Source: Parcubacteria group bacterium
GTDB taxonomy: Bacteria > Patescibacteriota > Minisyncoccia > UBA10092
Assembly: GCA_016188835.1 (NCBI GenBank)
Contig: JACPHB010000010.1
Location: 1 to 54,194 of the forward strand
Length of the DNA: 54,194 nucleotides
Direction: 5' to 3'
Positions 2,648 through 45,097 of this stretch are shown piece after piece. The notes beneath the pieces are model-generated. The model worked only from the letters and a program-made list of their open reading frames with translations. It did no database searches and was not told the DNA's origin. Positions within the stretch are counted from its first letter, which is position 1; each line of letters begins with the position of its first letter. A program made the position numbers and the translations under genes.

Positions 2648-4231
2648 ATGCCCAGCAAATATAACACTATCGCTTTAATTTTAATTATCACTATTGCGAT
2701 TTTTTTCAGGTTCTGGCAGTTTAATTCCATCCCACCCGGTTTATATCAAGACGAAGCGATGAATGGCGCCGACGCCTTGAGTTCTTTAGAAAGCGGAAAA
2801 CTTGGCGTTTTTTATACAAATAACAATGGCCGCGAAGGAATGATTGTTTGGTTAGATGCTTTAGCTATTAAAGTTTTTGGAACAGAACCATGGGTGTTAA
2901 GATTATTTCCCGCCCTTGCCGGAGTTTTGGCCGTTTTAGTGTTGTTTTTTCTGGCAAAAGAACTTTTTAGTGTTGAGATTGCCTTGGCTTCAAGCTTTTT
3001 TATGGCAACCAGTTTCTGGGCGGTAAATTTCAGCCGAATCGGTTTTAGAGCCGGACTTATGCTGCCAATCTTAATATGGTCTTTTTACTTCTTATATCGC
3101 GGCTTTAAATTATTGACATCCGATGTCGATAGCGACTATCGACATCGGATGTCAGATTTTATTACTGCTGGAATTTTATTCGGTTTGGGATTTTATACTT
3201 ATATTTCGTATAGATTCGCGCCGATTTTAGTCGCCGCATTTTTCATACCCTATCTTTTAAAACATCACATAAAAAACCTGTGGTTGGGATTTGCGATTTT
3301 CGCGATTACGGCTTTTATTGTCGCTTTACCGATAGGACTTTATTTTATTAATAACTCCGGCGACTTTTTCGGAAGAAGCAGGCAAGTATCTATTTTTTCA
3401 GCAGATAACCCCCTTAAGGCCTCTGTTTTAAGCATTGCGGCAACATTAGGAATGTTTAATATTATCGGAGACCTTAACTCACGGCATAATTTTGCCGGCT
3501 CTCCGCAATTGCTTTTGCCGGTGGGAATTTTATTTATTTTAGGGATTTTGATATGCGCCAAAAGAAGAAATTTGAGCGATAAGTTTTTATTGCTCTGGTT
3601 TTTTATATTTTTACTGCCAAATATTTTATCAACGGAGGGTAATCCCCACGCTTTGCGGGCTTTGGGAGCGATGCCTGCAGCAATGATTTTTGCCGGCATT
3701 GGATTAATTTGGCTTTATCAAAAAGTTAAAGGATATTTTGATAAAAAGATTAAAAATTTAGAACTTGAAGCTTACCGCGGCCAATTATTAAGAATTAAAA
3801 AAGAGGTCTTTATATTGCTATTCATTTTTTTATTGTTCATAAGCTTTTCTGAATTTAACAAATATTTTATTAAATGGGCTTCAAACATCCGCACCGCCGA
3901 TGCCTTTTCGCAAAGCCATGTTAAAATTGCCGACTACTTAAACCTATCGCCGAGAAACGTTAAAAAATATGTTATTTGGCCTGTGGATGATCGGCCAACA
4001 GAAAACGGCTTGCCGGTTTCCGCGCAAACCATATATTTCCTTACTTATGGAAAATCCGATATAAATTATGTGAAGTTCAATGAATCTGATAAAATAAATT
4101 TAGGGGCAAACGGTGCGATAATCGCTACGCTTAACTCCGATTTGGACTTGCTTCACGATTTAAATAAAAAATTTCCGAGCGGGAAAATTGAATTTATTTA
4201 TTTAAACACTCCGATTTTAATAGTTCCATAA
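2648..4231 (+). CDS. Polytopic membrane glycosyltransferase, GT39 / ArnT-PMT-like
   Basis: The 527-aa protein has many hydrophobic segments. The N-terminal loop PPGLYQDEAMNGADA carries the DE motif typical of ArnT/PMT-type lipid-carrier-dependent glycosyltransferases. Confidence 0.8.
   Translation: MPSKYNTIALILIITIAIFFRFWQFNSIPPGLYQDEAMNGADALSSLESGKLGVFYTNNNGREGMIVWLDALAIKVFGTEPWVLRLFPALAGVLAVLVLFFLAKELFSVEIALASSFFMATSFWAVNFSRIGFRAGLMLPILIWSFYFLYRGFKLLTSDVDSDYRHRMSDFITAGILFGLGFYTYISYRFAPILVAAFFIPYLLKHHIKNLWLGFAIFAITAFIVALPIGLYFINNSGDFFGRSRQVSIFSADNPLKASVLSIAATLGMFNIIGDLNSRHNFAGSPQLLLPVGILFILGILICAKRRNLSDKFLLLWFFIFLLPNILSTEGNPHALRALGAMPAAMIFAGIGLIWLYQKVKGYFDKKIKNLELEAYRGQLLRIKKEVFILLFIFLLFISFSEFNKYFIKWASNIRTADAFSQSHVKIADYLNLSPRNVKKYVIWPVDDRPTENGLPVSAQTIYFLTYGKSDINYVKFNESDKINLGANGAIIATLNSDLDLLHDLNKKFPSGKIEFIYLNTPILIVP
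3114..3154. repeat. Perfect 18-bp inverted repeat with a 5-nt loop inside the GT39 coding sequence
   Basis: The sequence is tgacatccgatgtcgata-gcgac-tatcgacatcggatgtca. It is in frame and encodes LTSDVDSDYRHRMSD. Confidence 0.9.
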
Positions 4232-6451: not shown

Positions 6452-6520
6452 AGAGTCCCCGCAGTAATATCTGTCAATTGCACGTTTAGAACCGATCGGT
6501 TGAAAATATGCAATTTAATT

Positions 6521-6550: not shown

Positions 6551-7339
6551 TTATTTTAATTTATAAAAAACGCGGCTCGGGATGCGCAAATCCACATATT
6601 CTAAATTACCGGTGTTTTTTACCGCTTCCTCTAAAATCGACAGTAAATTATTAACTGCCGCCGCCGGCTCCTGCTTTTCATCAAGATAAATTGACCAATT
6701 TTTATTTGTTACGGCTTCCAAATCAACAGAAAAATTTGGTTTTATTTTAAATTCTAAAATTTTAAATTTATTATTTTCTGAAATTTTGGCATTAAAAGCA
6801 AATATAAAATTGATTAAATTATCATCTAAAACTTTATCACCCAATAAAATATTGTTTTTTGACAAATCCTCTATTTTCAATATTAAACTGCCTTCGGTTT
6901 CGGGCGTCTTTGCAAATGCAACGCCGGTTTTATCGAAGTAATAGCAACCAGCGCTATTACACCAAATACCAATCTGAATTCTTTTATGAAAATCTATTGT
7001 AATTGTGTTAAATAATTTTTTTGTGATTGTTATGTCGGTTATAGACGGAAAAGCGGCGGCTAATTCCGATTTTAACCGTGATTTTGATAAAATTAATAAG
7101 TTTTCACCCAATCCGAACGAATTGATATTTGAGATTATACTTAGAATATTATCGCGATTTAAAACGGTATTATCGGAAAAATTTATATTTTGAATTTTTA
7201 AAAAAGATGATAAAAAAATTAACCAAAATACAGTTAGAATAATGGCTAAAAGAAAAAATAAAAAAAATAAAATTTTTATTTTTTTAATTTTTTCTTCTTT
7301 GCTTATTGTTTTGAATCTGTAATAGCGGCTTGATGGCAT
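6551..7339 (-). CDS. ftsQ: Cell division protein FtsQ/DivIB-like (TM + POTRA)
   Basis: The 262-aa protein has one N-terminal TM followed by a POTRA-like segment (KIQNINFSDNTVLNRDNILSII...ITITKKLFNTITIDFHKR). Confidence 0.65.
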   Translation of the reverse strand: MPSSRYYRFKTISKEEKIKKIKILFFLFFLLAIILTVFWLIFLSSFLKIQNINFSDNTVLNRDNILSIISNINSFGLGENLLILSKSRLKSELAAAFPSITDITITKKLFNTITIDFHKRIQIGIWCNSAGCYYFDKTGVAFAKTPETEGSLILKIEDLSKNNILLGDKVLDDNLINFIFAFNAKISENNKFKILEFKIKPNFSVDLEAVTNKNWSIYLDEKQEPAAAVNNLLSILEEAVKNTGNLEYVDLRIPSRVFYKLK

Positions 7340-14946: not shown

Positions 14947-15981
14947 TTAACCGTTATTTATCAAAATTTCTCTTAAAGATTCAACATCTTCAAGAATAAT
15001 GCCGCAACCGCGAACCACTGCCGTTAAAGGATCTTCGGCAAGTTTTGTCGGAATTCCGGTGGTTTGGGTAACCATCTCTGAAAGACCGCGCAACATACTG
15101 CCGCCTCCAGCTAAAACGATTCCCCGCGTCATTAAATCGCTTAAGAGTTCCGGGGGCGTTTCTTCAATCACAGAACGAACTTCCGAAATAATAGCGTTAA
15201 CTGACGGAGCGATTGCTTCGCAAACTTCTACGTCGCTTATTAAAACTTCTTTGGGTAAACCGCTTATTAGATCGCGGCCTCTTACCATTGCCGTTAATTT
15301 TTCTTTTAAAGGCAATACCGACCCGATTAAAATTTTAATTTCTTCGGCGGTTTTTTCTCCCAAAAGGAGCTGAAATTCATCTCTGGCGTATTGAATAATA
15401 TCCTCATTCATTCTCTCGCCGGCAACTCTTAGATTTCGCGACACCACAATGCCTCCCAAAGATATTACTGCCACATCGGTAGTCCCGCCCCCGATGTCAA
15501 CAATCATGTTGCCAACGGCTTCAGAAATTGGAAGGCGAGCTCCGATAGCCGCCGCCATTGGCTCTTCCACAAGATAAACTTCTCTGGCGCCGGCATTTTT
15601 AGCCGCGTCTTCAACGGCTCGCCGTTCCACTTCGGTTACCCCTGAAGGAATGCCTATAACCACTCGCGGCCTCACTAAAAAACTATAAGAATCCTTGTGG
15701 ACCTTATTAAAAAAATATTTTAGCATTTGTTCGGTTACTTCAAAATCGGAAATAACCCCATCAATTAAAGGGCGGATGGCTACGATATGGCCCGGCGTCC
15801 GGCCAATCATTTTTTTGGCTTCCGCTCCGATGCTTAACACCTGATCGGTTTTTTTATTTATGGCCACTATAGAAGGCTCGTTAATGACGATACCTCGTCC
15901 CCTTACGTAAACCAAAGTGTTGGCCGTCCCCAAATCTATGCCTATATCTCTTGAAAATATTTTAAATAAACGATTTATCAT
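14947..15981 (-). CDS. mreB: Rod shape-determining protein MreB (actin-like ATPase)
   Basis: The motifs DLGTANTLVY, DIGGGTTDVAVISLGG and LAGGGSMLRGL are present. Confidence 0.95.
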   Translation of the reverse strand: MINRLFKIFSRDIGIDLGTANTLVYVRGRGIVINEPSIVAINKKTDQVLSIGAEAKKMIGRTPGHIVAIRPLIDGVISDFEVTEQMLKYFFNKVHKDSYSFLVRPRVVIGIPSGVTEVERRAVEDAAKNAGAREVYLVEEPMAAAIGARLPISEAVGNMIVDIGGGTTDVAVISLGGIVVSRNLRVAGERMNEDIIQYARDEFQLLLGEKTAEEIKILIGSVLPLKEKLTAMVRGRDLISGLPKEVLISDVEVCEAIAPSVNAIISEVRSVIEETPPELLSDLMTRGIVLAGGGSMLRGLSEMVTQTTGIPTKLAEDPLTAVVRGCGIILEDVESLREILINNG

Positions 15982-18301: not shown

Positions 18302-18336
18302 GAACGCATTTATTGCCTATAGGATTTTAATGCGTT
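18302..18336 (+). repeat. Copy B of the palindromic element
   Basis: The sequence is gaacgcatttattgcctataggattttaatgcgtt. It starts 5 nt after the stop of the PaaX-like gene. Confidence 0.85.
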
Positions 18337-18950: not shown

Positions 18951-18983
18951 ACTAGCTCAAAATCTAAAAATAAGGTCTGCCTT

Positions 18984-19021
18984 GGACACAAAGATTACCT
19001 ATAGGAGATTTTTGCGTTCAG
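18984..19021 (+). repeat. Copy C (degenerate left arm) of the palindromic element
   Basis: The sequence is ggacacaaagattacctataggagatttttgcgttcag. Confidence 0.7.
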
Positions 19022-19192: not shown

Positions 19193-20245
19193 TTATAGAA
19201 GTTTTAAGATATCTCTGTAGGTTATCAATGCAACGAGTACCAAGAGCAAGACGATGCCAACAGAATGAATGGCGTTTTCAATCTTGGGGTTGACTTTTGA
19301 GCCCTTGATTTTTTCTATAGCTAAAAATAACAGCCGACCGCCGTCTAAAGCAGGAAAAGGAATTAAATTTAAAACCGCGAGATTAAGAGAAATCAAAGCC
19401 ACTAATTGAAGCAGATAAACAAAACCGAGAGCTGTCGCCTGGCCGGCCAATACCGCAATTCCCACCGGACCGGCAACCTCCTGAGGCACTTTTCCGGAAA
19501 CCAGAAGATTTTTAATTAACCCAAAAAATCCCTTAATTATTTCCCAAGTTATAATAAACGACGATTTTATCCCAAGCCAAACGCTTTGATACCATGGATA
19601 AGAAACAAGGCCGGTTTTAGCAAGAGCTATGCCTAAAGCTCCTTCTCCTTCCGGAGGACTTACTCTAGGGACGGTTTTAATTTCTAAATTGCCTTGACCT
19701 CTTTTAATTTTTAAATTTATTTCTTGGCCCTTGTTTTTACTGATGAAATCCTGAAAAATTAAAATTTCGGAAAAATTTTCTATAGAATCGCCGAGTTTTA
19801 AACCGGCTTTTTCTGCCGGAGAATTATGGTTGATGGCAATAATTTGAATTTGAACATTTTTAGCGAGTGTTTCATTTTCTTCGCTTACAACTTGCGGCAA
19901 GCCGATATAAAATCCGATGATTAAGAGCATGGCGCCGAGTGCGAAATTCATCATAACTCCAGCCGCGGTGATTAAACTTCTAATAACAATGGATTTTGAA
20001 GAAAAACTTTTAGAATTATTAGTTTCGCTGCCGTCTTCGCCTAATATTTTAACAAAGCCGCCCAAGGGCAAAAGATTTATTGAATAAATTGTTTCGCCGG
20101 ATTTCCAGCTAAAAATTCTTGGCGGAAAGCCAAAACCGAATTCTTCCACAGTTAAGCCGCTTTTTTTGGCAACAATAAAATGGCCAAATTCGTGAACCAA
20201 AACTAAAATTCCCAAAATTAAAATAAAAACCAAAATGGTAATCAT
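19193..20245 (-). CDS. rseP: RIP metalloprotease RseP (site-2 protease, M50)
   Basis: It has HEFGHF, a PDZ-like middle region and NLIPFPALDGGRL. Confidence 0.9.
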   Translation of the reverse strand: MITILVFILILGILVLVHEFGHFIVAKKSGLTVEEFGFGFPPRIFSWKSGETIYSINLLPLGGFVKILGEDGSETNNSKSFSSKSIVIRSLITAAGVMMNFALGAMLLIIGFYIGLPQVVSEENETLAKNVQIQIIAINHNSPAEKAGLKLGDSIENFSEILIFQDFISKNKGQEINLKIKRGQGNLEIKTVPRVSPPEGEGALGIALAKTGLVSYPWYQSVWLGIKSSFIITWEIIKGFFGLIKNLLVSGKVPQEVAGPVGIAVLAGQATALGFVYLLQLVALISLNLAVLNLIPFPALDGGRLLFLAIEKIKGSKVNPKIENAIHSVGIVLLLVLVALITYRDILKLL

Positions 20246-20793
20246 CCGTTTTTAATTTCTTCTTCTTTTAACTTCAATAAATTTTCCAAATTATTATTTG
20301 TTAAGTCAATTAATTTTTGGATCCCTTCTTTTATTTTAAATTTTTCATCTTCGGTAATTTTTTTGGAGTCAAACAGCTCATTAACTTCTTTTATCATTTT
20401 ATCTCTGCTATTGCGATATTTGATTTTAGCTTCTTCCGATTTAGAACCTATAACTTTTATTAGCGCCACTCTTCGTTCTTCGGTTAATGACGGAATATTT
20501 ATCCTGATTAAATTTTTATCAACAATGGGATTTAAATTTAAGTCGGAAGTTAAAATAGCTTTTTCCAGATTAGGCAAAACGGTTCTATCCCATGGCTCAA
20601 TTATTAAAATTCTTGGTTCCGGAGCGGAAATGGAAGCCAGTTGTTTTATGGGAATTTTGGAACCATAGCAATCAACCAATATGTTTTCAACGAGAGCCGG
20701 GGTGGCGCGGCCAACGCGCAAAGAAGAAAACTCGGTTTTTAACGATTCTTCTATTTTTTTTAATTCATTTTTAAAATTTTCTAAAATTTCCAT
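20242..20793 (-). CDS. frr: Ribosome recycling factor
   Basis: The 183-aa protein contains LRVGRATPALVENILVDCYG. Confidence 0.95.
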   Translation of the reverse strand: MEILENFKNELKKIEESLKTEFSSLRVGRATPALVENILVDCYGSKIPIKQLASISAPEPRILIIEPWDRTVLPNLEKAILTSDLNLNPIVDKNLIRINIPSLTEERRVALIKVIGSKSEEAKIKYRNSRDKMIKEVNELFDSKKITEDEKFKIKEGIQKLIDLTNNNLENLLKLKEEEIKNG

Positions 20794-20805
20794 GAAGGTT
20801 TATAA

Positions 20806-20902
20806 GCCAATAAAACAAATTTTTTTAAAATTCCTTAGCCCCATTCGCCTTCGGCGAACGGCTCGCCCCCGCCTAGAATTTTAAAAAATTTGTTTTATTG
20901 GC
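20806..20902 (+). repeat. Long hairpin element, copy 1: a 27/28-bp AT-rich stem around a conserved GC-rich core
   Basis: The arms are gccaataaaacaaatttttttaaaattc and gaattttaaaaaatttgttttattggc. The core is cttagccccattcgccttcggcgaacggctcgcccccgccta. The right arm encodes the last 9 codons of holB. Confidence 0.9.
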
Positions 20903-21670
20903 ATCACAGTTAAAACTTAATAATAATTCATCATAAGCAAACTTCGGATTAATATTTGTTTCATTTAATTTAAAATAAATATTTTGGCTTGTTTTTAATA
21001 AATTGTTTAATTTTTGATTCGGGCTAAATAAGAATTTGGCTCTTAAAAATATGATCCAAAATTTGAAAATTTCAATTGCCGAGTAATCGCTAAATTTTTC
21101 AATAATAGAATATCGGTCTTTTGATTCATTGCTAAAAATTTCGTTAAAAATTTCTATAATTTTTTTATCTGTTTCTATATCAACGCCGTCTTGTCGCCAA
21201 AATGGCAATTTTATGCCGCGAGAAGCAATAGTTTCCGGAATTCCGTCAATAGTTTTAACGTTTAGTATAATAATGGCATGATTCGGTGCCTCTTCAAAAA
21301 TTTTGAGCAAGGCGTTTTGAGCGTAAATATTTAATTTTTCCGCCGCATCTATTACCGCTATTTTATATTTTCCGTAATAAGGACTTAAAATTAGAAATTT
21401 TTTAAGCTGCCTGATTAAATTTATAGACCGCTCTTCATCAGTATCGGCTGAAATTAAAATTAAATCCGGATTAAAACCCCGACGCTGTAAAGTCGGGGCT
21501 CCGACCGAAGCATCGGAGCTAAAATCAGGATTAAGAATTTTATTAGCGAATTTTAAAGCAATCGTTTTTTTAGCCAACTCATCCGGTCCATAAAAAATAT
21601 AAGCATGAGACAAACCATTGTTTTCAATGCATTTGTTAAGATAATCGGTAATTTTCTGATAATTATTCAT
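20873..21670 (-). CDS. holB: DNA polymerase III delta-prime-like clamp-loader subunit (divergent)
   Basis: The N-terminus NGLSHAYIFYGPDELAKKTIALKFANKILN and the length fit delta-prime. The Walker A motif is degenerate. Confidence 0.65.
   Translation of the reverse strand: MNNYQKITDYLNKCIENNGLSHAYIFYGPDELAKKTIALKFANKILNPDFSSDASVGAPTLQRRGFNPDLILISADTDEERSINLIRQLKKFLILSPYYGKYKIAVIDAAEKLNIYAQNALLKIFEEAPNHAIIILNVKTIDGIPETIASRGIKLPFWRQDGVDIETDKKIIEIFNEIFSNESKDRYSIIEKFSDYSAIEIFKFWIIFLRAKFLFSPNQKLNNLLKTSQNIYFKLNETNINPKFAYDELLLSFNCDANKTNFLKF
21477..21518. repeat. Tandem GC-rich hairpins inside holB
   Basis: The two hairpins are ccccgac-gctgtaaa-gtcgggg and ctccga-ccgaagca-tcggag. They encode SSDASVGAPTLQRRGF on the coding strand. 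Confidence 0.85.
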
Positions 21671-21674
21671 TTTA

Positions 21675-22688
21675 TTAGCGACGCGCCATAATGCTTCTTT
21701 TATAAAATTCCAGATTTTCTAAAACCAAACCAGCGCCCTTGGCGACGCAAAATAACGGTTCTTCGGCGACATATGCCGGAACTCCGGTGGCTTTTACCAT
21801 TAGTTCGTCAAAATTCCTAAGTAACGCCGTGCCGCCGGATAAAATTATTCCTTTATCCATTATATCGGCAGATAATTCCGGAGGAGTTTGGGCTAAGACC
21901 AGTTTAACGGCTTGAATAATTTCTTTAAGTCGCTCGGAAATTGCTTCCACGACTTCATTGGTGCCAATGTTAATATTCCGCGGCAAACCGGTTACTATAT
22001 CGCGGCCTCGAACGCCTATGTGAAGTTCATCTTTCAAAGGCAGTGCTGAGCCAACTTCAATTTTTATTCTTTCGGCAGTTCTTTCTCCAATGGCTAAATT
22101 ATGGCGGCGTTTAAGGTAATCAATAATCGCCTGGTCCAATTTATTGCCGCCTACCCTTCTTGAATGAGAAGTTACAATGCCGCCTAAAGAAATAACCGCC
22201 ACTTCGGTGGTGCCGCCGCCAACCGACATAATTAAATTTCCGGAAGCCGAATTAATTGGGATATTGGCTCCAATAGCGGCTAAAACCGGCTCTTTAACAA
22301 TATAGGCGGCTCTGGCGCCGGCATTTACAGCCGCGTCAATAACAGCCCTTCTTTCGGTTGAACTGGAACCGGATGGCACGGTTACTAAAACTTCCGGTTT
22401 TATTAACTGGAATCTGCCCAAGCTTTTACCAATAAAATACCTGAGCATGGCTTCGGTAATTTTATAATCGGCAATAACGCCATCGCGCATTGGTTTTTTG
22501 GCGATTATATTTTCCGGAGTGCGGCCGATCATTGTTTGTGCCTCAATACCAATGGCCAAAACGGCATTATTATCCGGAGAAATTGCCACCACAGTGGGCT
22601 CATTCAAAGTAATCCCGCGACCGGGAATAAATACAAGAGTATTAACAGTGCCGAGATCAATTCCGATTTTTTTAGTAAAGATTGCCAT
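21675..22688 (-). CDS. Second MreB/Mbl-type actin homologue
   Basis: The motifs DLGTVNTLVF, SVGGGTTEVAVISLGG and LSGGTALLRNF are present. It is clearly paralogous to 14947..15981. Confidence 0.9.
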   Translation of the reverse strand: MAIFTKKIGIDLGTVNTLVFIPGRGITLNEPTVVAISPDNNAVLAIGIEAQTMIGRTPENIIAKKPMRDGVIADYKITEAMLRYFIGKSLGRFQLIKPEVLVTVPSGSSSTERRAVIDAAVNAGARAAYIVKEPVLAAIGANIPINSASGNLIMSVGGGTTEVAVISLGGIVTSHSRRVGGNKLDQAIIDYLKRRHNLAIGERTAERIKIEVGSALPLKDELHIGVRGRDIVTGLPRNINIGTNEVVEAISERLKEIIQAVKLVLAQTPPELSADIMDKGIILSGGTALLRNFDELMVKATGVPAYVAEEPLFCVAKGAGLVLENLEFYKRSIMARR

Positions 22689-22693
22689 GTTTT

Positions 22694-22792
22694 AAAAAAT
22701 GAAAATAAAATTTTAAAATTGTCATAGCCCCACCCCGCTTCGCGGGGCGGCACGACCCCGCCTACAATTTTAAAATTTCATTTTCATTTTTT
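22694..22792 (+). repeat. Long hairpin element, copy 2
   Basis: The arms are aaaaaatgaaaataaaattttaaaattgt and acaattttaaaatttcattttcatttttt (29 bp, 1 mismatch). The core is catagccccaccccgcttcgcggggcggcacgaccccgcct. Confidence 0.9.
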
Positions 22793-22799
22793 ATATTAA

Positions 22800-24065
22800 T
22801 TAATTTTTAATTCTCTTTATATCTGCTCCTAGTGCTTGTAAACGTTCATCTATTTTTTCATATCCCCTATCAATTTGGTAAATATTTTCTACAACGCTTT
22901 GGCCTTCCGCTAAAAGCGCCGCGATAATTAATGCCATTCCGGCGCGAATGTCTGGGCTGTTAATTTTTTTACCGCGCAGCTTACTGGGACCTTGAACAAT
23001 AACCCGATGCGGATCAGCCATAATAATATTCGCACCCATCTGATTTAAGATATCGGTATAAAATAACCGGCCCTCATAAATTGTTTCGTGAACCAATGAA
23101 ATGCCGTTCGCCTGCGTCAACAAAACAGTAAGCGGCGCTTGAAGGTCTGTAGCAAAACCAGGATATTCGCGTGTCTTAACATCGATAGTTCGAAGATTTC
23201 TAACGGGCTTTACTATAACATAATCAGCGCCAATTTCAAGATCGGCTCCCGCTTTTTCAAGTAATGAGAGTAATACTTCCAAATGTTCCGGGTGGCAATT
23301 TTTTATTTTAATATTGCTTTTGCTCGCAATCGCCAAAATTATAAAAGTTCCCGATTCAATTCTATCGGGAAAACCGTTCCAAGCGCCGCCATTAAGTTCT
23401 TTTGCGCCAACAATTTCAATTGACGGCGTGCCAGCTCCGGAAATTTTAGCGCCCAAAGAATTTAAAAAAATGGCTAAATTTTCTATTTCCGGTTCGCAAG
23501 CGGCATTTTTTAAAATTGTTTTTCCTTGAGCCAGTACTGCCGCCATCATTAAATTCTCGGTTCCGGTTACGCTTACTATTGGAAAAACAAATTTATTGCC
23601 TATAAGTTTTTTGGAAGCGACTGTAAAAATATCTCCCCTCTTTTTAACCTTTGCCCCCAAAGCTTCAAAACCGTCAATAAAAAAATCAATCGGCCGTTTG
23701 CCCAAAGTGCAGCCGCCAGGATGAGGAAACGAAACTTTGCCGTATCTAGCTAAAATTGGTCCAGTCAAAACAATTGACGCCCTGAACCGATCGGCGATTT
23801 TATAATTTAAATCAGTTTTTTTTATTCCTGAAGAATTTATAAAATTGCCTGAAAACTTAGCGCCCAAATCAATAAGAAGTTCTTTCATTCTGTCAACGTC
23901 TTCTATCTTCGGCATTTTCGGCAATTTTACCGGTTTGTCGGTTAAAATTGATGCGGCTAAAATTTTTAAAGCCGCGTTTTTAGCGATACCAACAGTGATT
24001 TCGCCTTCTAATTTTTTCCCGCCGTTTATAACAAAATATTCCGCCATGATGTGAATATTATACAA
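22800..24065 (-). CDS. murA: UDP-N-acetylglucosamine 1-carboxyvinyltransferase. An alternative start is Met7 at 24047.
   Basis: The 421-aa protein is typical MurA throughout (FPHPGGCTLGKRPID, PGFATDLQAP). Confidence 0.95.
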   Translation of the reverse strand: MYNIHIMAEYFVINGGKKLEGEITVGIAKNAALKILAASILTDKPVKLPKMPKIEDVDRMKELLIDLGAKFSGNFINSSGIKKTDLNYKIADRFRASIVLTGPILARYGKVSFPHPGGCTLGKRPIDFFIDGFEALGAKVKKRGDIFTVASKKLIGNKFVFPIVSVTGTENLMMAAVLAQGKTILKNAACEPEIENLAIFLNSLGAKISGAGTPSIEIVGAKELNGGAWNGFPDRIESGTFIILAIASKSNIKIKNCHPEHLEVLLSLLEKAGADLEIGADYVIVKPVRNLRTIDVKTREYPGFATDLQAPLTVLLTQANGISLVHETIYEGRLFYTDILNQMGANIIMADPHRVIVQGPSKLRGKKINSPDIRAGMALIIAALLAEGQSVVENIYQIDRGYEKIDERLQALGADIKRIKN

Positions 24066-24124: not shown

Positions 24125-25066
24125 ATGACAATAAGATTCAGACGTTTTGTTTTTTGGATTTTTGTTATTCTATTTATCGCCGCGAGCATTACCATTACCC
24201 TTTTTGCCCAAGGATGGCGTTTTGATTTTGATTCTTTTAAAATGGTTAGAACCGGCGGTATTTTTGTTAAAACCACGGTTTCCGGCGCTAAAATATATAT
24301 AAATGATAAATTTACCGGAACAACAGCGGGCATTTTAAATTACACAAAATTAGTCGACGATCTTGCCCCCAAAAATTATAATCTTTTTATTCACAAAGAA
24401 GGATATTACCCATGGAACAAAATGGTTGAAGTAAAAAATGGCCTGGTAACCAAATTAATTTCTGTAACTTTATTTCCTTTGGAACTTAAAAAAATTAAAA
24501 TGGCGCAATTACCGGCGCAAAAAATAGCAGATTTTGAAGTTAACGATAAAACAATTAGGATAATAGATAATAAAAAAATAGGAACCGCTAAAATTTATGA
24601 TTTTGATGGGCAATTTATATCAAACGAAAAATTTAAAATTTCAACTTCCACAGAATTAATATCTCCCGATAAAAATAAAAAGCTTTATGCCGTAGATAAT
24701 AAAATTTGGATTGAGTATTTAAATGACATAAAAGAAGAGCCGTCTAAAAAAGCGGGGGAAAAAGAAATAATCGCTACGTCGGAATCGCCAATTTTATTTT
24801 TAGATTGGCTTAAAGATTCCGAGCACATTATCTGGCTTACTAACGGCGAATTAACAATTGCCGAAAGGGATAATCGAGGCGGTAAGCGGAACAGCGTTAA
24901 ATTTTATTTAAACATCAATCCGCCAATTTTTTGGGACATTAAAAATTTCGATCTCTATTTCTTTGAAACTGATAAATCCCGACGCCTTGACGGAACGTCA
25001 ACGGTCGGGATCCCGACCGAAGCATCGGGAGAAAAAATTATCTTATATAAAATAAATGTAGAATAA
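24125..25066 (+). CDS. Membrane-anchored PEGA-domain protein. The ATG at 24125 is preferred over the TTG at 24077.
   Basis: It has an N-terminal TM (FVFWIFVILFIAASITITLF) followed by a PEGA-like segment (GGIFVKTTVSGAKIYINDKFTG...NLFIHKEGYYPW). Confidence 0.65.
   Translation: MTIRFRRFVFWIFVILFIAASITITLFAQGWRFDFDSFKMVRTGGIFVKTTVSGAKIYINDKFTGTTAGILNYTKLVDDLAPKNYNLFIHKEGYYPWNKMVEVKNGLVTKLISVTLFPLELKKIKMAQLPAQKIADFEVNDKTIRIIDNKKIGTAKIYDFDGQFISNEKFKISTSTELISPDKNKKLYAVDNKIWIEYLNDIKEEPSKKAGEKEIIATSESPILFLDWLKDSEHIIWLTNGELTIAERDNRGGKRNSVKFYLNINPPIFWDIKNFDLYFFETDKSRRLDGTSTVGIPTEASGEKIILYKINVE
24977..25030. repeat. Tandem GC-rich hairpins inside the PEGA gene (same family as 21477..21518)
   Basis: The two hairpins are tcccgac-[gccttgacggaacgtcaacg]-gtcggga and tcccga-ccgaagca-tcggga. 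They encode SRRLDGTSTVGIPTEASG. Confidence 0.85.
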
Positions 25067-25078
25067 CAATTATTCCAC

Positions 25079-25098
25079 TTTCAGACGATCGTCTGAAA
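25079..25098. terminator. 20-nt perfect palindrome between convergent genes
   Basis: The sequence is tttcagacga-tcgtctgaaa. Confidence 0.45.
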
Positions 25099-25113
25099 CT
25101 CGTATAATTAAAA

Positions 25114-25158
25114 ACGGCACGTGGGAGAAGATCGCTGATGCGATTTCCCACGTGCCGT
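25114..25158 (-). terminator. GC-rich rho-independent terminator of the SPFH gene
   Basis: acggcacgtggga pairs with tcccacgtgccgt (13-bp perfect stem). On the minus strand it is followed by TTTTTAATTAT. Confidence 0.7.
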
Positions 25159-25186
25159 ATTGCCGATTGAACTGCTCTTTGGCCGG

Positions 25187-26056
25187 CTACTTGGTAGGCT
25201 TGCCCGAAGCGTCGAATGTTCCGACGAGAGGCACCCCGTTGTTGCCCACAGGGATATAGATCGTCGTGTGATTCGGCGACCCCACCATCTTCTCTTGCGC
25301 CGCGATCGCCTCGTGCTGGAGGTACTGGGGAGTGAGGCGCTGGTTGATGATCTCCATCGCCTTAGCAACACCCTCAGCGTCCTTGATTCGTTTCTCCGCG
25401 TCTCGCCCGGCGATCTGGATTTCGGTCGCCTTCTGCTCGAGAAGCTGAGTCGTTGCCATCTTCTTGGCCACGGCATTCGCCACTTCATCTGGGTATTGGA
25501 TATCGCCGACGACCACACTCATGATGTCGAACGGGGTGTTGTTGACCCAGATCTTCATTGTCTTCTCGATGGCATGGCCGATCTGAACAATCCGCTCTTT
25601 GAGAGCCAACGCATCCAGCGCCTGCACTTCATCACGAGTCGCCGTTCGCAATGGCTCCTTCAAAAAGTTACCGTAGGCGACTTCGACGACCTTGTTCGGG
25701 TTCTTGTCGTCGCCCCTTTCGAGCGTCGTGTACTTCTCGACGAACAACTTCACTTGCTCGTGTTCAGGCTTCACCCGCCAGACGATGTGCACCTGGAAAG
25801 ACACCTTGAGGTTGTCCTTCGAGAGAACGGTCATCGGCTCATGGTAGGTGTATGGCGTCACGCTGATGTTGTGAGCGTCGAGCAGCCATCCGAGCCCCGT
25901 CGATGTCGGCCCCGTCTGCATGTTGTAGAACCGATCATGACCGAACCAGGCGCCCTGCGTGACGTACCCGACGTAACCAGCAGGGGTTGAAGGGTTCGAG
26001 CAGCCGACGAGACCGAACGAACCAATGACGAGAGCGAGAAAAATAATCCTTTTCAT
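25187..26056 (-). CDS. SPFH/Band-7 (prohibitin/stomatin-like) lipoprotein; compositionally foreign
   Basis: It has a signal peptide plus lipobox (MKRIIFLALVIGSFGLVGC). The Band-7-like core carries a C-terminal Ala/Glu-rich helix (ATTQLLEQKATEIQIAGRDAEKRIKDAEG). GC is about 52-67% on hand-counted lines, against 23-40% in the flanks. Confidence 0.8.
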   Translation of the reverse strand: MKRIIFLALVIGSFGLVGCSNPSTPAGYVGYVTQGAWFGHDRFYNMQTGPTSTGLGWLLDAHNISVTPYTYHEPMTVLSKDNLKVSFQVHIVWRVKPEHEQVKLFVEKYTTLERGDDKNPNKVVEVAYGNFLKEPLRTATRDEVQALDALALKERIVQIGHAIEKTMKIWVNNTPFDIMSVVVGDIQYPDEVANAVAKKMATTQLLEQKATEIQIAGRDAEKRIKDAEGVAKAMEIINQRLTPQYLQHEAIAAQEKMVGSPNHTTIYIPVGNNGVPLVGTFDASGKPTK

Positions 26057-39129: not shown

Positions 39130-39239
39130 AAACCGCCTGTGGACAACTTTATTTGTAATGTGCTATACTATTTTCGGTGCTTGGAGGGCCTTGGCCCTGT
39201 CACGGCTATCTAAGCTGTAACCAAACACCACTAAAAAAT

Positions 39240-39259
39240 ACCGCTCTGCGGTGTTTTTT
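39240..39259. terminator. Bidirectional terminator hairpin
   Basis: accgc-tct-gcggt is flanked by A6 upstream and T6 downstream. It serves efp or the sRNA candidate on the plus strand and 39263..39748 on the minus strand. Confidence 0.6.
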
Positions 39260-39262
39260 AGT

Positions 39263-43452: not shown

Positions 43453-43465
43453 ATTTATGTTATGT

Positions 43466-43563
43466 GATTACAAAAATAATAAAAATAAAATTCTAGGTGG
43501 GGGCGAGCCGTTCGCCGTAGGCGAATGGGGCTAAGGAATTTTATTTTTATTATTTTTGTAATC
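43466..43563 (-). repeat. Long hairpin element, copy 3 (core inverted relative to copies 1 and 2)
   Basis: Perfect 28-bp arms (gattacaaaaataataaaaataaaattc and gaattttatttttattatttttgtaatc) flank the core taggtgggggcgagccgttcgccgtaggcgaatggggctaag. The element fills the gap between the two genes. Confidence 0.9.
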
Positions 43564-43566
43564 ATT

Positions 43567-44957: not shown

Positions 44958-44995
44958 GAACGCATTTACTGCCTATAGGATATATATGCGTTCAG
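44958..44995 (+). repeat. Copy D of the palindromic element GAACGCA..TGCCTATAGGA..TGCGTTC
   Basis: The sequence is gaacgcatttactgcctataggatatatatgcgttcag. The first 24 nt match copy B at 23 of 24 positions. Confidence 0.85.
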
Positions 44996-45097
44996 ATAAA
45001 AAACAAAAATAATTATAAACTTAACGATAATAATAAACTTACAATACAATTACAGATTTTTAACCGATCGGAAAAATATCCGTAATTTATAAAACCC

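Follow-up and report, generated by a model that had tools for sequence, protein, structure and literature searches.

A dispersed hairpin repeat with a conserved, invertible centre and site-specific, co-varying arms at gene junctions of Azambacteria-like Patescibacteria

The hairpin between holB and frr in the window, i.e., the whole 54,194-nt stretch of DNA analysed here, is a member of a dispersed non-coding hairpin repeat family of Azambacteria-like Patescibacteria. Members of the family sit at gene junctions, their arms are kept paired, their centre is deleted, exchanged or inverted, and they supply stop codons and C-terminal codons to adjacent genes. The family is a small palindromic repeat set apart by a conserved, invertible centre and by site-specific, co-varying arms. 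It was not found in the searchable literature, and this ~100-nt repeat has apparently not been described before. From sequence comparison, the reading we find fairly probable is that of a REP/MITE-like hairpin repeat transcribed along with the operon around it, its arm pairing being kept by DNA recombination or template switching.

The holB–frr element and its repeat family

Copy 1 lies between a holB-like gene for DNA polymerase III delta' (20873..21670, minus strand; PF13177, 265 aa) and the downstream gene frr, encoding ribosome recycling factor (20242..20793, minus strand; PF01765). Its left arm, distal to holB, occupies 20806..20833 on the plus strand (GCCAATAAAACAAATTTTTTTAAAATTC, 28 nt), and its right arm, proximal to holB, occupies 20876..20902 on the minus strand (GAATTTTAAAAAATTTGTTTTATTGGC as written on the plus strand, 27 nt). 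The two arms are complementary save for one extra T in the left arm, and they surround a GC-rich core of 42 nt (20834..20875, plus strand; cttagccccattcgccttcggcgaacggctcgcccccgccta). A sequence-only reading of the same DNA had proposed arms of 27 and 28 bp with one bulged T around a core, which was confirmed at 20806-20833 and 20876-20902. The distal arm is separated from the frr start codon (20793) by 12 nt. The holB stop codon TAG (20873..20875, minus strand; cta on the plus strand) consists of the last three core bases and lies within a palindromic CTAG. The holB open reading frame (ORF) ends in ...NCDANKTNFLKF*, and its final nine codons, ANKTNFLKF, are the right arm read on the minus strand; the earlier placing of these codons in the arm, with the stop at the core/arm junction, held for the minus-strand ORF 20873..21670.

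The core of copy 1 has the flanks CTTAGCCCCA and CGGCTCGCCCCCGCCTA, which are family-invariant sequences. AGCC (20837-20840) pairs with GGCT (20860-20863), and the C-rich stretch 20864-20875 is unpaired. The apical mini-hairpin (20844..20858, plus strand) reads TTCGCC-TTC-GGCGAA, or C(GAA)G on the minus strand, with a 6-bp stem and a 3-nt loop (TTC, or GAA on the other strand). The sequence-only reading had recognized this mini-hairpin and had noted c(TTCG)g within it on the plus strand; the hairpin stands, and its loop is the triloop TTC, not a c(UUCG)g tetraloop. Folded as RNA, the holB-sense strand of copy 1 reached -46.9 kcal/mol (z = -8.2 against shuffles) and the other strand reached -39.8 kcal/mol (z = -9.1 against shuffles).

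A 21-nt core word is repeated within the window, where 0 repeats were expected. We searched the window with a covariance model built from 73 distinct copies and found exactly three copies, all other matches being generic hairpins below 21 bits. Copy 1 matched at 20803-20905 (core on the plus strand, 95 bits), copy 2 at 22692-22794 (plus, 93 bits) and copy 3 at 43464-43565 (minus, 104 bits). Copy 2 (22693..22793, plus strand; core 22723-22763) belongs to the subtype starting with ATAG/GTAG and fills the murA-mreB junction. Copy 3 (43465..43564, minus strand; core 43494-43535) has perfect 29-bp arms, and its core orientation is opposite to that of copies 1 and 2, though all flanking genes are on the minus strand. 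On one side of it is the gene for a 415-aa protein without Pfam match, and on the other that for a VirD4/TraG-like ATPase that has a treble-clef zinc finger. Copies 1 and 3 had been taken to have completely different arms, which was wrong, as the inner arms TAAAATTC and GAATTTTA are identical and family-invariant. The related claim that only self-complementarity is preserved was therefore overstated.

Outside the window, pattern matching gave 115 matches, ~80 of them distinct, in metagenome contigs and one metagenome-assembled genome (MAG); within this set, a second pattern scan accounts for 100 groundwater metagenome contigs with copies. The pattern used on the genome collection was loose, and its matches were mostly chance hits in GC-rich genomes; the one informative MAG, CAZBVM01, labelled Saccharibacteria, carries 7 copies in the pattern scan. 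Viral contigs gave no match to the repeat pattern. In DNA metagenomes containing the window, the summed depth of the core was ~50 times that of the flanks, as would be the case with some tens of copies in each genome; because part of the depth comes from related genomes, this figure is an upper bound. None of the RNA runs contained the locus. The sole hint of an RNA copy was a run of uncertain type, guessed to be RNA (X21), in which a 178-nt contig at depth ~5, matching 20823-20886, contains a core with 2 differences; it was uninformative. An Rfam scan of the whole window at gathering thresholds returned three tRNAs only. A permissive scan of 20700-21000 returned chance-level matches only, including PK-HAV and TwoAYGGAY, which were discarded.

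The whole element measures 94-106 nt, with arms of 25-31 bp (mode 27) that are A-rich at the 5' side and T-rich at the 3' side on both strands. The inner arm TAAAATT(C/G) and its complement (8 bp) are invariant among copies, and two arm classes are seen, ...AAAATAAAATTC and ...AAATTTTAAAATTG. The outer 10-15 bp of the arms are site-specific; positions beyond ~13-20 vary by site and are still paired. The core of 42-49 nt is GC-rich and asymmetric, with the almost invariant flanks (C)TTAGCCCCA and CGGC(T/A)CG(C/A)CCCC(R)CCTA. Between the flanks lies a short helix, (A)GCC/GGC(T), and on one side only, 8-12 nt of C-rich sequence are left unpaired. At the tetranucleotide compared with the GTAG of REP elements, 59 of 73 copies read TTAG and 13 of the remaining 14 read GTAG. 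The apical hairpin is the variable part, with 26 different sequences among the collected copies.

The covariance analysis that the sequence-only reading had called for showed that the arms co-vary. Among the 73 distinct copies, 92% of arm cells were paired; shuffles gave 69%, and sliding the partner gave no more than 55%. Two-sided changes occurred in 24 of the 29 arm pairs, and none of 500 shuffles reached the observed values. RNAalifold, unprompted, recovered the GCC/GGC helix and the arms as well as an apical stem that co-varies (UA, CG and AU in the same columns). Of the 74 two-sided arm changes counted at orthologous sites, 73 were compensated, and 31 further changes were one-sided. Arm identity at these sites was 0.88 and that of the flanking genes 0.84, a similar pace; therefore, selection on the stem is inseparable from templated correction.

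Copies sit exactly in the junctions of adjacent genes, in either orientation, and the distance from arm to downstream start codon is 4-14 nt. Relative to the core as written, 22 contexts were tandem in the opposite sense, 15 tandem in the same sense, 8 convergent and 2 divergent. In about one-fifth of copies, the upstream ORF enters the arm by ~22 nt and ends at the TAA of TAAAATT; therefore, what is seen at holB recurs regularly in the family. A TAG in a second frame, the frame used by holB, comes from the palindromic CTAG at the edge of the core. A Pfam scan of 40 window ORFs showed ordinary chromosomal genes, e.g., for cell wall and division, tRNA synthetases and ribosomal proteins, and include rpoA, secF and efp; no transposase, integrase or invertase was found among them. 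A sigma-70 promoter at the element was considered and rejected, the promoter-like matches being those of ordinary AT-rich DNA, and no conserved -35 element was found there. The unpaired core strand was also considered, on sequence grounds only, as SD-like, anti-SD-like or G-quadruplex sequence, and these readings received no support.

Several other features of the window were recorded. Intergenic palindromes at 18303-18336, 18983-19020 and 44958-44993, and also at 6476-6515 and 45048-45087, form two groups, one with centre CCTATAGG and ends (G)AACGCAT...ATGCGTT(C), the other with centre CCGATCGG and AATT ends; these groups may represent operators or belong to a different repeat family. Inside a PMT_2 glycosyltransferase ORF (2648..4231) lies an inverted repeat (3114-3154) of 19 bp, perfectly paired and with a 3-nt loop. 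An ordinary-looking bidirectional terminator, ACTAAAAAAT-ACCGC-TCT-GCGGT-GTTTTTTAGT (39230-39262), lies between the convergent efp and a 161-aa ORF and shares the A-tract, GC stem and T-tract design of the element. GC content rises to 0.55 at 25001-26000, compared with ~0.37 elsewhere, in a segment overlapping an SPFH/Band 7 gene (25187..26056) and long opposite-strand ORFs. Two mreB paralogues (14947-15981 and 21675-22688) lie 6 kb apart; mreC and the gene for a PBP2-like transpeptidase come after the first.

Gain, loss and inversion at orthologous junctions

The gene string murA-mreB-holB-frr-rseP is conserved among relatives. The names attached to holB homologues put the window in Candidatus Azambacteria (Parcubacteria group). 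In a homologue alignment, conserved HolB sequence stops at ...AYDELxLxL/F, beyond which length and sequence diverge. Comparison of holB C-termini with and without the element, a check proposed in the sequence-only reading, showed that the tail N(C/Y)(D/E)ANK(T/I)NF occurs only in orthologues with the GCCAATAAAA... palindrome, i.e., in the window, L118-121 and L122. Orthologues without the distal arm have other endings, such as NMLIK*, WKS* and QNS*. In L118-121 (holB 81% identical to that of the window), the junction is a perfect 37-nt palindrome, GCCAATAAAACAAATTTT-T-AAAATTTGTTTTATTGGC, without GC core, and the tail ...EANKTNF* ends in a TAA at the apex. Compared with the window, arms and tail are the same and the central 60 nt are absent; this form was also found as a 60-nt skip in a metagenome contig. 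L122 (holB 65%) has a full element with the same outer arms and a different apical hairpin, and its stop is the in-arm TAA. L123-125 (holB 83%) have only an A-rich tail resembling the proximal arm, with frr 3-8 nt on and the ending NMLIK*. L226 (holB 80%) carries a holB-frr palindrome with other arms and the signature AAAATTG, without core, and nothing is present at the junction in L227, L228 and L183. Within the window itself, a 23-bp A/T-only palindrome, AAGAAAAAATAAAAAAAATAAAA T TTTTATTTTTTTAATTTTTTCTT (7250-7296), just 5' of an FtsQ-like gene, looks like a coreless arm pair.

In L122, ACA/TGT of the arm in the window and L118 is ATA/TAT, changing Thr to Ile, and pairing was kept while coding changed. 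The coding arm has 6 Ts in the window, compared with 5 in L118 and L122; the extra T puts the TAA out of frame, so that HolB gains LKF and stops at the core-edge TAG. Given this one-T frame shift, the HolB tail is arm-derived, unconstrained and plastic. The alignments show that the tail is encoded by the arm and tied to the hairpin, and that it does not require the GC core. The sequence-only reading had offered two possibilities, an insertion that re-created the C-terminus or an arm under both coding and pairing constraint; the arm-encoded tail and the compensated Thr-to-Ile change partly support this interpretation.

The event at holB-frr could be insertion into an older palindrome or core loss from an older element. 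On a tree of MreB, HolB and Frr, gain and loss at this junction were not orientable by parsimony, because the junctions that bear an element seem to have been exchanged laterally. Although no relative is more distant than L183, its copy 2 is nearly identical to that of the window, which points to such lateral exchange.

Presence and absence of the element at orthologous sites was seen at holB-frr, at murA-mreB and at 8 or more further sites. The element or a 5'-truncated remnant is present at murA-mreB in the window, L183 and L226, the remnant of L226 comprising the 3' half of the core and one arm, whereas in L118, L123 and L227 the genes overlap by ATGA with no element. L190, suggested by gene sizes as a further murA-mreB site, proved not to be one. 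In the element-bearing alleles, MurA ends in ...KN* instead of ...KS*, MreB begins with MAIF instead of MSLF, and the stop and start codons are separate.

Centre-less palindromes exactly 60 nt shorter were found at two independent sites (window compared with L118, and L075 compared with L146/L149), and the junctions of the 60-nt loss fall in the palindromic direct repeats TTTTAAAA / AATTTTAAAATT. Decayed remnants keep inner-arm signatures, namely AAAATTG without core in L226 and arm+C+TTTTATT in L162. At the site orthologous to L127:705-808, L189 shares the outer arms AAATAAAATAA / TTATTTTATTT, and a plain GC stem-loop, CCCCGC-AGTT-GCGGGG, replaces the core; this stem-loop resembles a bidirectional terminator and the apical hairpins of the family. 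The centre can also be exchanged, as unrelated apical hairpins occur between identical arms at sites whose flanking genes are only 73-86% identical. Finally, the core is inverted with flanks fixed in five site groups. In the closest pair, L144:9278-9381 and L180:359-462, flanks and arms are 100% identical and the 44-nt core is inverted; the four other groups involve more distant relatives. These flips were seen between assemblies, and within-sample Logan contigs break inside the element. Duplicate contigs across samples agree in core orientation, and so assembly error is unlikely.

We found no target-site duplication: flanking direct repeats of 72 copies were no longer than those of a control in which the left flank of one copy was paired with the right flank of another. 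Junction points vary, giving units of 60, 72 and ~100 nt. Inverted target duplication on insertion was considered because the empty sites of L123, L199 and L177 keep only the gene-proximal arm; it was inseparable from a deletion sparing the coding arm and was not adopted.

Origin and possible role of the element

The absence of target duplication and of conserved termini, the varying junctions, the occurrence of both orientations, the concerted centre and the site-specific arms together fit recombination or template switching better than cut-and-paste transposition. We propose that the palindromic arms, being of low complexity, would allow recombination between them, or template switching during replication, and that the element would be spread and homogenised in this way. 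This would keep the arms paired, copy the centre in either orientation and delete it between short palindromic direct repeats. Template switching is known to create, homogenise, extend and invert inverted repeats (PMC8794818, PMC8604942, PMC13100816). In mRNA, the element would form a 27-bp AU duplex clamped by the GC core between cistrons. Such an intercistronic hairpin probably acts in processing, stability or insulation, being of the kind cleaved by RNase III; Correia elements of Neisseria, ~100 bp in size, are cut by RNase III (PMC2649163). The element may also be without any function.

The core flanks are near-invariant across lineages whose proteins differ by 20-40%, a degree of conservation that seems to go beyond a generic hairpin role and points to a specific partner, whether protein, RNA or enzyme. 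One candidate is a strand-specific functional RNA, in which the TAGGYGGGGGCG...GGGGCUAAG strand would be active as a cis-regulatory motif or as a protein-recognised small RNA and the arms would only present it. The flank invariance and the co-variation of the apical stem at the same columns are in its favour, as are the features of the TAGGYGGGGGCG...GGGGCTAAG strand, which is the holB-sense strand for copy 1. On this strand, 59 of 74 copies have a C(GNA)G triloop at the apex, tandem G.A pairs occur in 13 stems, and arm mismatches are of the wobble type (G.U) in 28 cells, compared with 3 on the other strand; a wobble mismatch ~15 bp from the core recurs in 19 of 73 copies. The TAGGYGGGGGCG...GGGGCUAAG strand is also the mRNA sense in ~60-65% of contexts, including copies 1 and 2. 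These asymmetries are suggestive of a strand-specific molecule and would suit it better than a passive mRNA hairpin. However, the other strand is in the mRNA in ~40% of clear tandem contexts (15/37), and the wobble bias tracks core orientation and not transcription or flanking-gene direction (15 to 8, the background ratio). The wobble and loop signal is partly inherited by descent, and the 74/74 folding result is weak evidence because G-rich strands fold better anyway. In addition, there is no conserved -35 element, canonical terminator or Rfam match, and elements decay in some lineages. We therefore regard a functional RNA of this kind as unlikely, though it deserves consideration.

An enzyme-driven mobile or invertible DNA cassette appears less plausible still. 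Here, an HUH/RAYT-like nuclease, a hairpin-loop transposase or an invertase would have the folded single strand or the 27-bp inverted repeats as its recognition target and would put a ~60-nt centre into the apex of an AT-rich palindrome or terminator. The empty sites that are perfect palindromes exactly 60 nt shorter at two loci, the plain GC stem-loop between the shared outer arms of L189 and L127, and the core inverted between identical arms would suit such an enzyme. C(GNA)G hairpins are exceptionally stable in DNA (PMC13037366), and a minority subtype begins with GTAG like REP elements. Nevertheless, the 40 window ORFs scanned include no candidate enzyme gene, no target duplication was found, and most copies have TTAG instead of GTAG. 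The 60-nt difference is equally explained by deletion between the direct repeats TTTTAAAA / AATTTTAAAATT, the remnants of L226 and L162 show that loss by deletion happens, and orientation is mixed within one replichore (copies 1 and 2 compared with copy 3).

It is likewise doubtful, though conceivable, that the core is a transposase-free cassette copied either way into the apex of A-rich/T-rich terminator-like hairpins; within this reading, it would be copyable in either orientation because the arms are low-complexity palindromes. If so, the cassette would rewrite adjacent gene ends, namely the tail of HolB, the C-terminus of MurA and the N-terminus of MreB. Whether the G-rich strand with C(GNA)G caps or the C-rich strand enters the operon mRNA would depend on its orientation, and the core would be an invertible switch in miniature, placed among the housekeeping genes of a genome that is streamlined.

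A further reading takes the element as an intrinsic terminator or attenuator, elaborated and bidirectional, built from A-tract, GC-rich hairpin and T-tract as in the ordinary terminators of this genome. Such a device would share its design with the native hairpins at 39230-39262 and in L189 and agrees with the rarity of copies between divergent genes (2, compared with 8 convergent), but it is highly improbable. Terminator scanning, which for copies 1 and 2 covered 20200-23000, gave no site at any of the three copies. An intrinsic terminator has a U-run within 0-2 nt of its GC-rich stem-loop, and the U-run here (T-run in DNA) begins 6 nt (TAGG strand) or 17 nt (other strand) past the core helix. 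Conserved operons harbour most copies, at 4-14 nt from the following start codon, e.g., in murA-mreB-holB-frr, where genes overlap in relatives, and the invariance of the core flanks is unnecessary for termination.

Significance and comparison with known systems

The genomes of Patescibacteria (CPR) are ~1 Mb in size and nearly free of intergenic DNA. In so streamlined a genome, it is unexpected that perhaps ~0.5% of the sequence should belong to a repeat lying between essential genes whose termini it alters. More than 70 distinct copies, many with filled, empty, decayed or flipped states at orthologous sites, constitute a data set on the origin and upkeep of perfect stems. Should it prove to be an RNase III site, insulator or switch, the element would offer a first handle on post-transcriptional operon control in organisms that are not culturable alone. 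For annotation, gene ends beside elements, e.g., the HolB tail, should be read as element-derived and variable.

The repeat shares several properties with the Correia elements of Neisseria (CREE/NEMIS; PMC2649163, PMC2229807), which are non-coding, ~100-155 bp long and bounded by inverted repeats of ~26 bp. Both occur in dozens to hundreds of copies beside or between genes, with presence varying between strains in Correia, and Correia hairpins are co-transcribed, as is probable here; the present copies lie in conserved gene strings. However, the Correia inverted repeats are conserved in sequence and accompanied by a TA duplication, whereas here only the inner 8 bp of the arms are conserved and no duplication is seen. 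The conserved part of the present family is the centre and not the ends.

Like REP/BIME and REPIN-RAYT elements, the family consists of extragenic GC-rich hairpins at gene 3' ends, in high copy and both orientations, without target duplication. REP/BIME elements have roles in mRNA stability or attenuation. In contrast to this family, REPs are imperfect palindromes of 20-40 nt headed by GTAG, whereas here a 27-bp AT stem carries the GC hairpin only at its tip and the GTAG foot is found in a minority, with TTAG in 59 of 73 copies. No RAYT was seen among the 40 window ORFs scanned.

MITEs resemble the family in being short, non-coding, dispersed (three copies in 54 kb here and more than 100 elsewhere) and variably present at orthologous sites; the terminal inverted repeats of the present family are, however, not conserved in sequence, and there is no target-site duplication. 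Rickettsia palindromic elements (RPEs; MITE review, PMC10969869) are also small palindromic repeats of a reduced genome that join ORFs. RPEs lie in frame within genes and encode internal peptides, whereas the present element contributes only the last 6-9 codons and the stop. Invertons have a segment that is bounded by inverted repeats, as here, and that is found in both orientations at one locus; in the present family, the segment is only 42-49 nt, no invertase is nearby, and opposite orientations are seen between assemblies only, once with 100% identical flanks.

Inverted repeats formed by template switching (PMC8794818, PMC8604942, PMC13100816) match the family in their perfect stems, one-step compensated changes, arm homogenisation and extension, and spacer inversion. 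These are, however, single-locus mutational events, whereas the same conserved spacer occurs at many loci here, so that some copying between loci is also needed.
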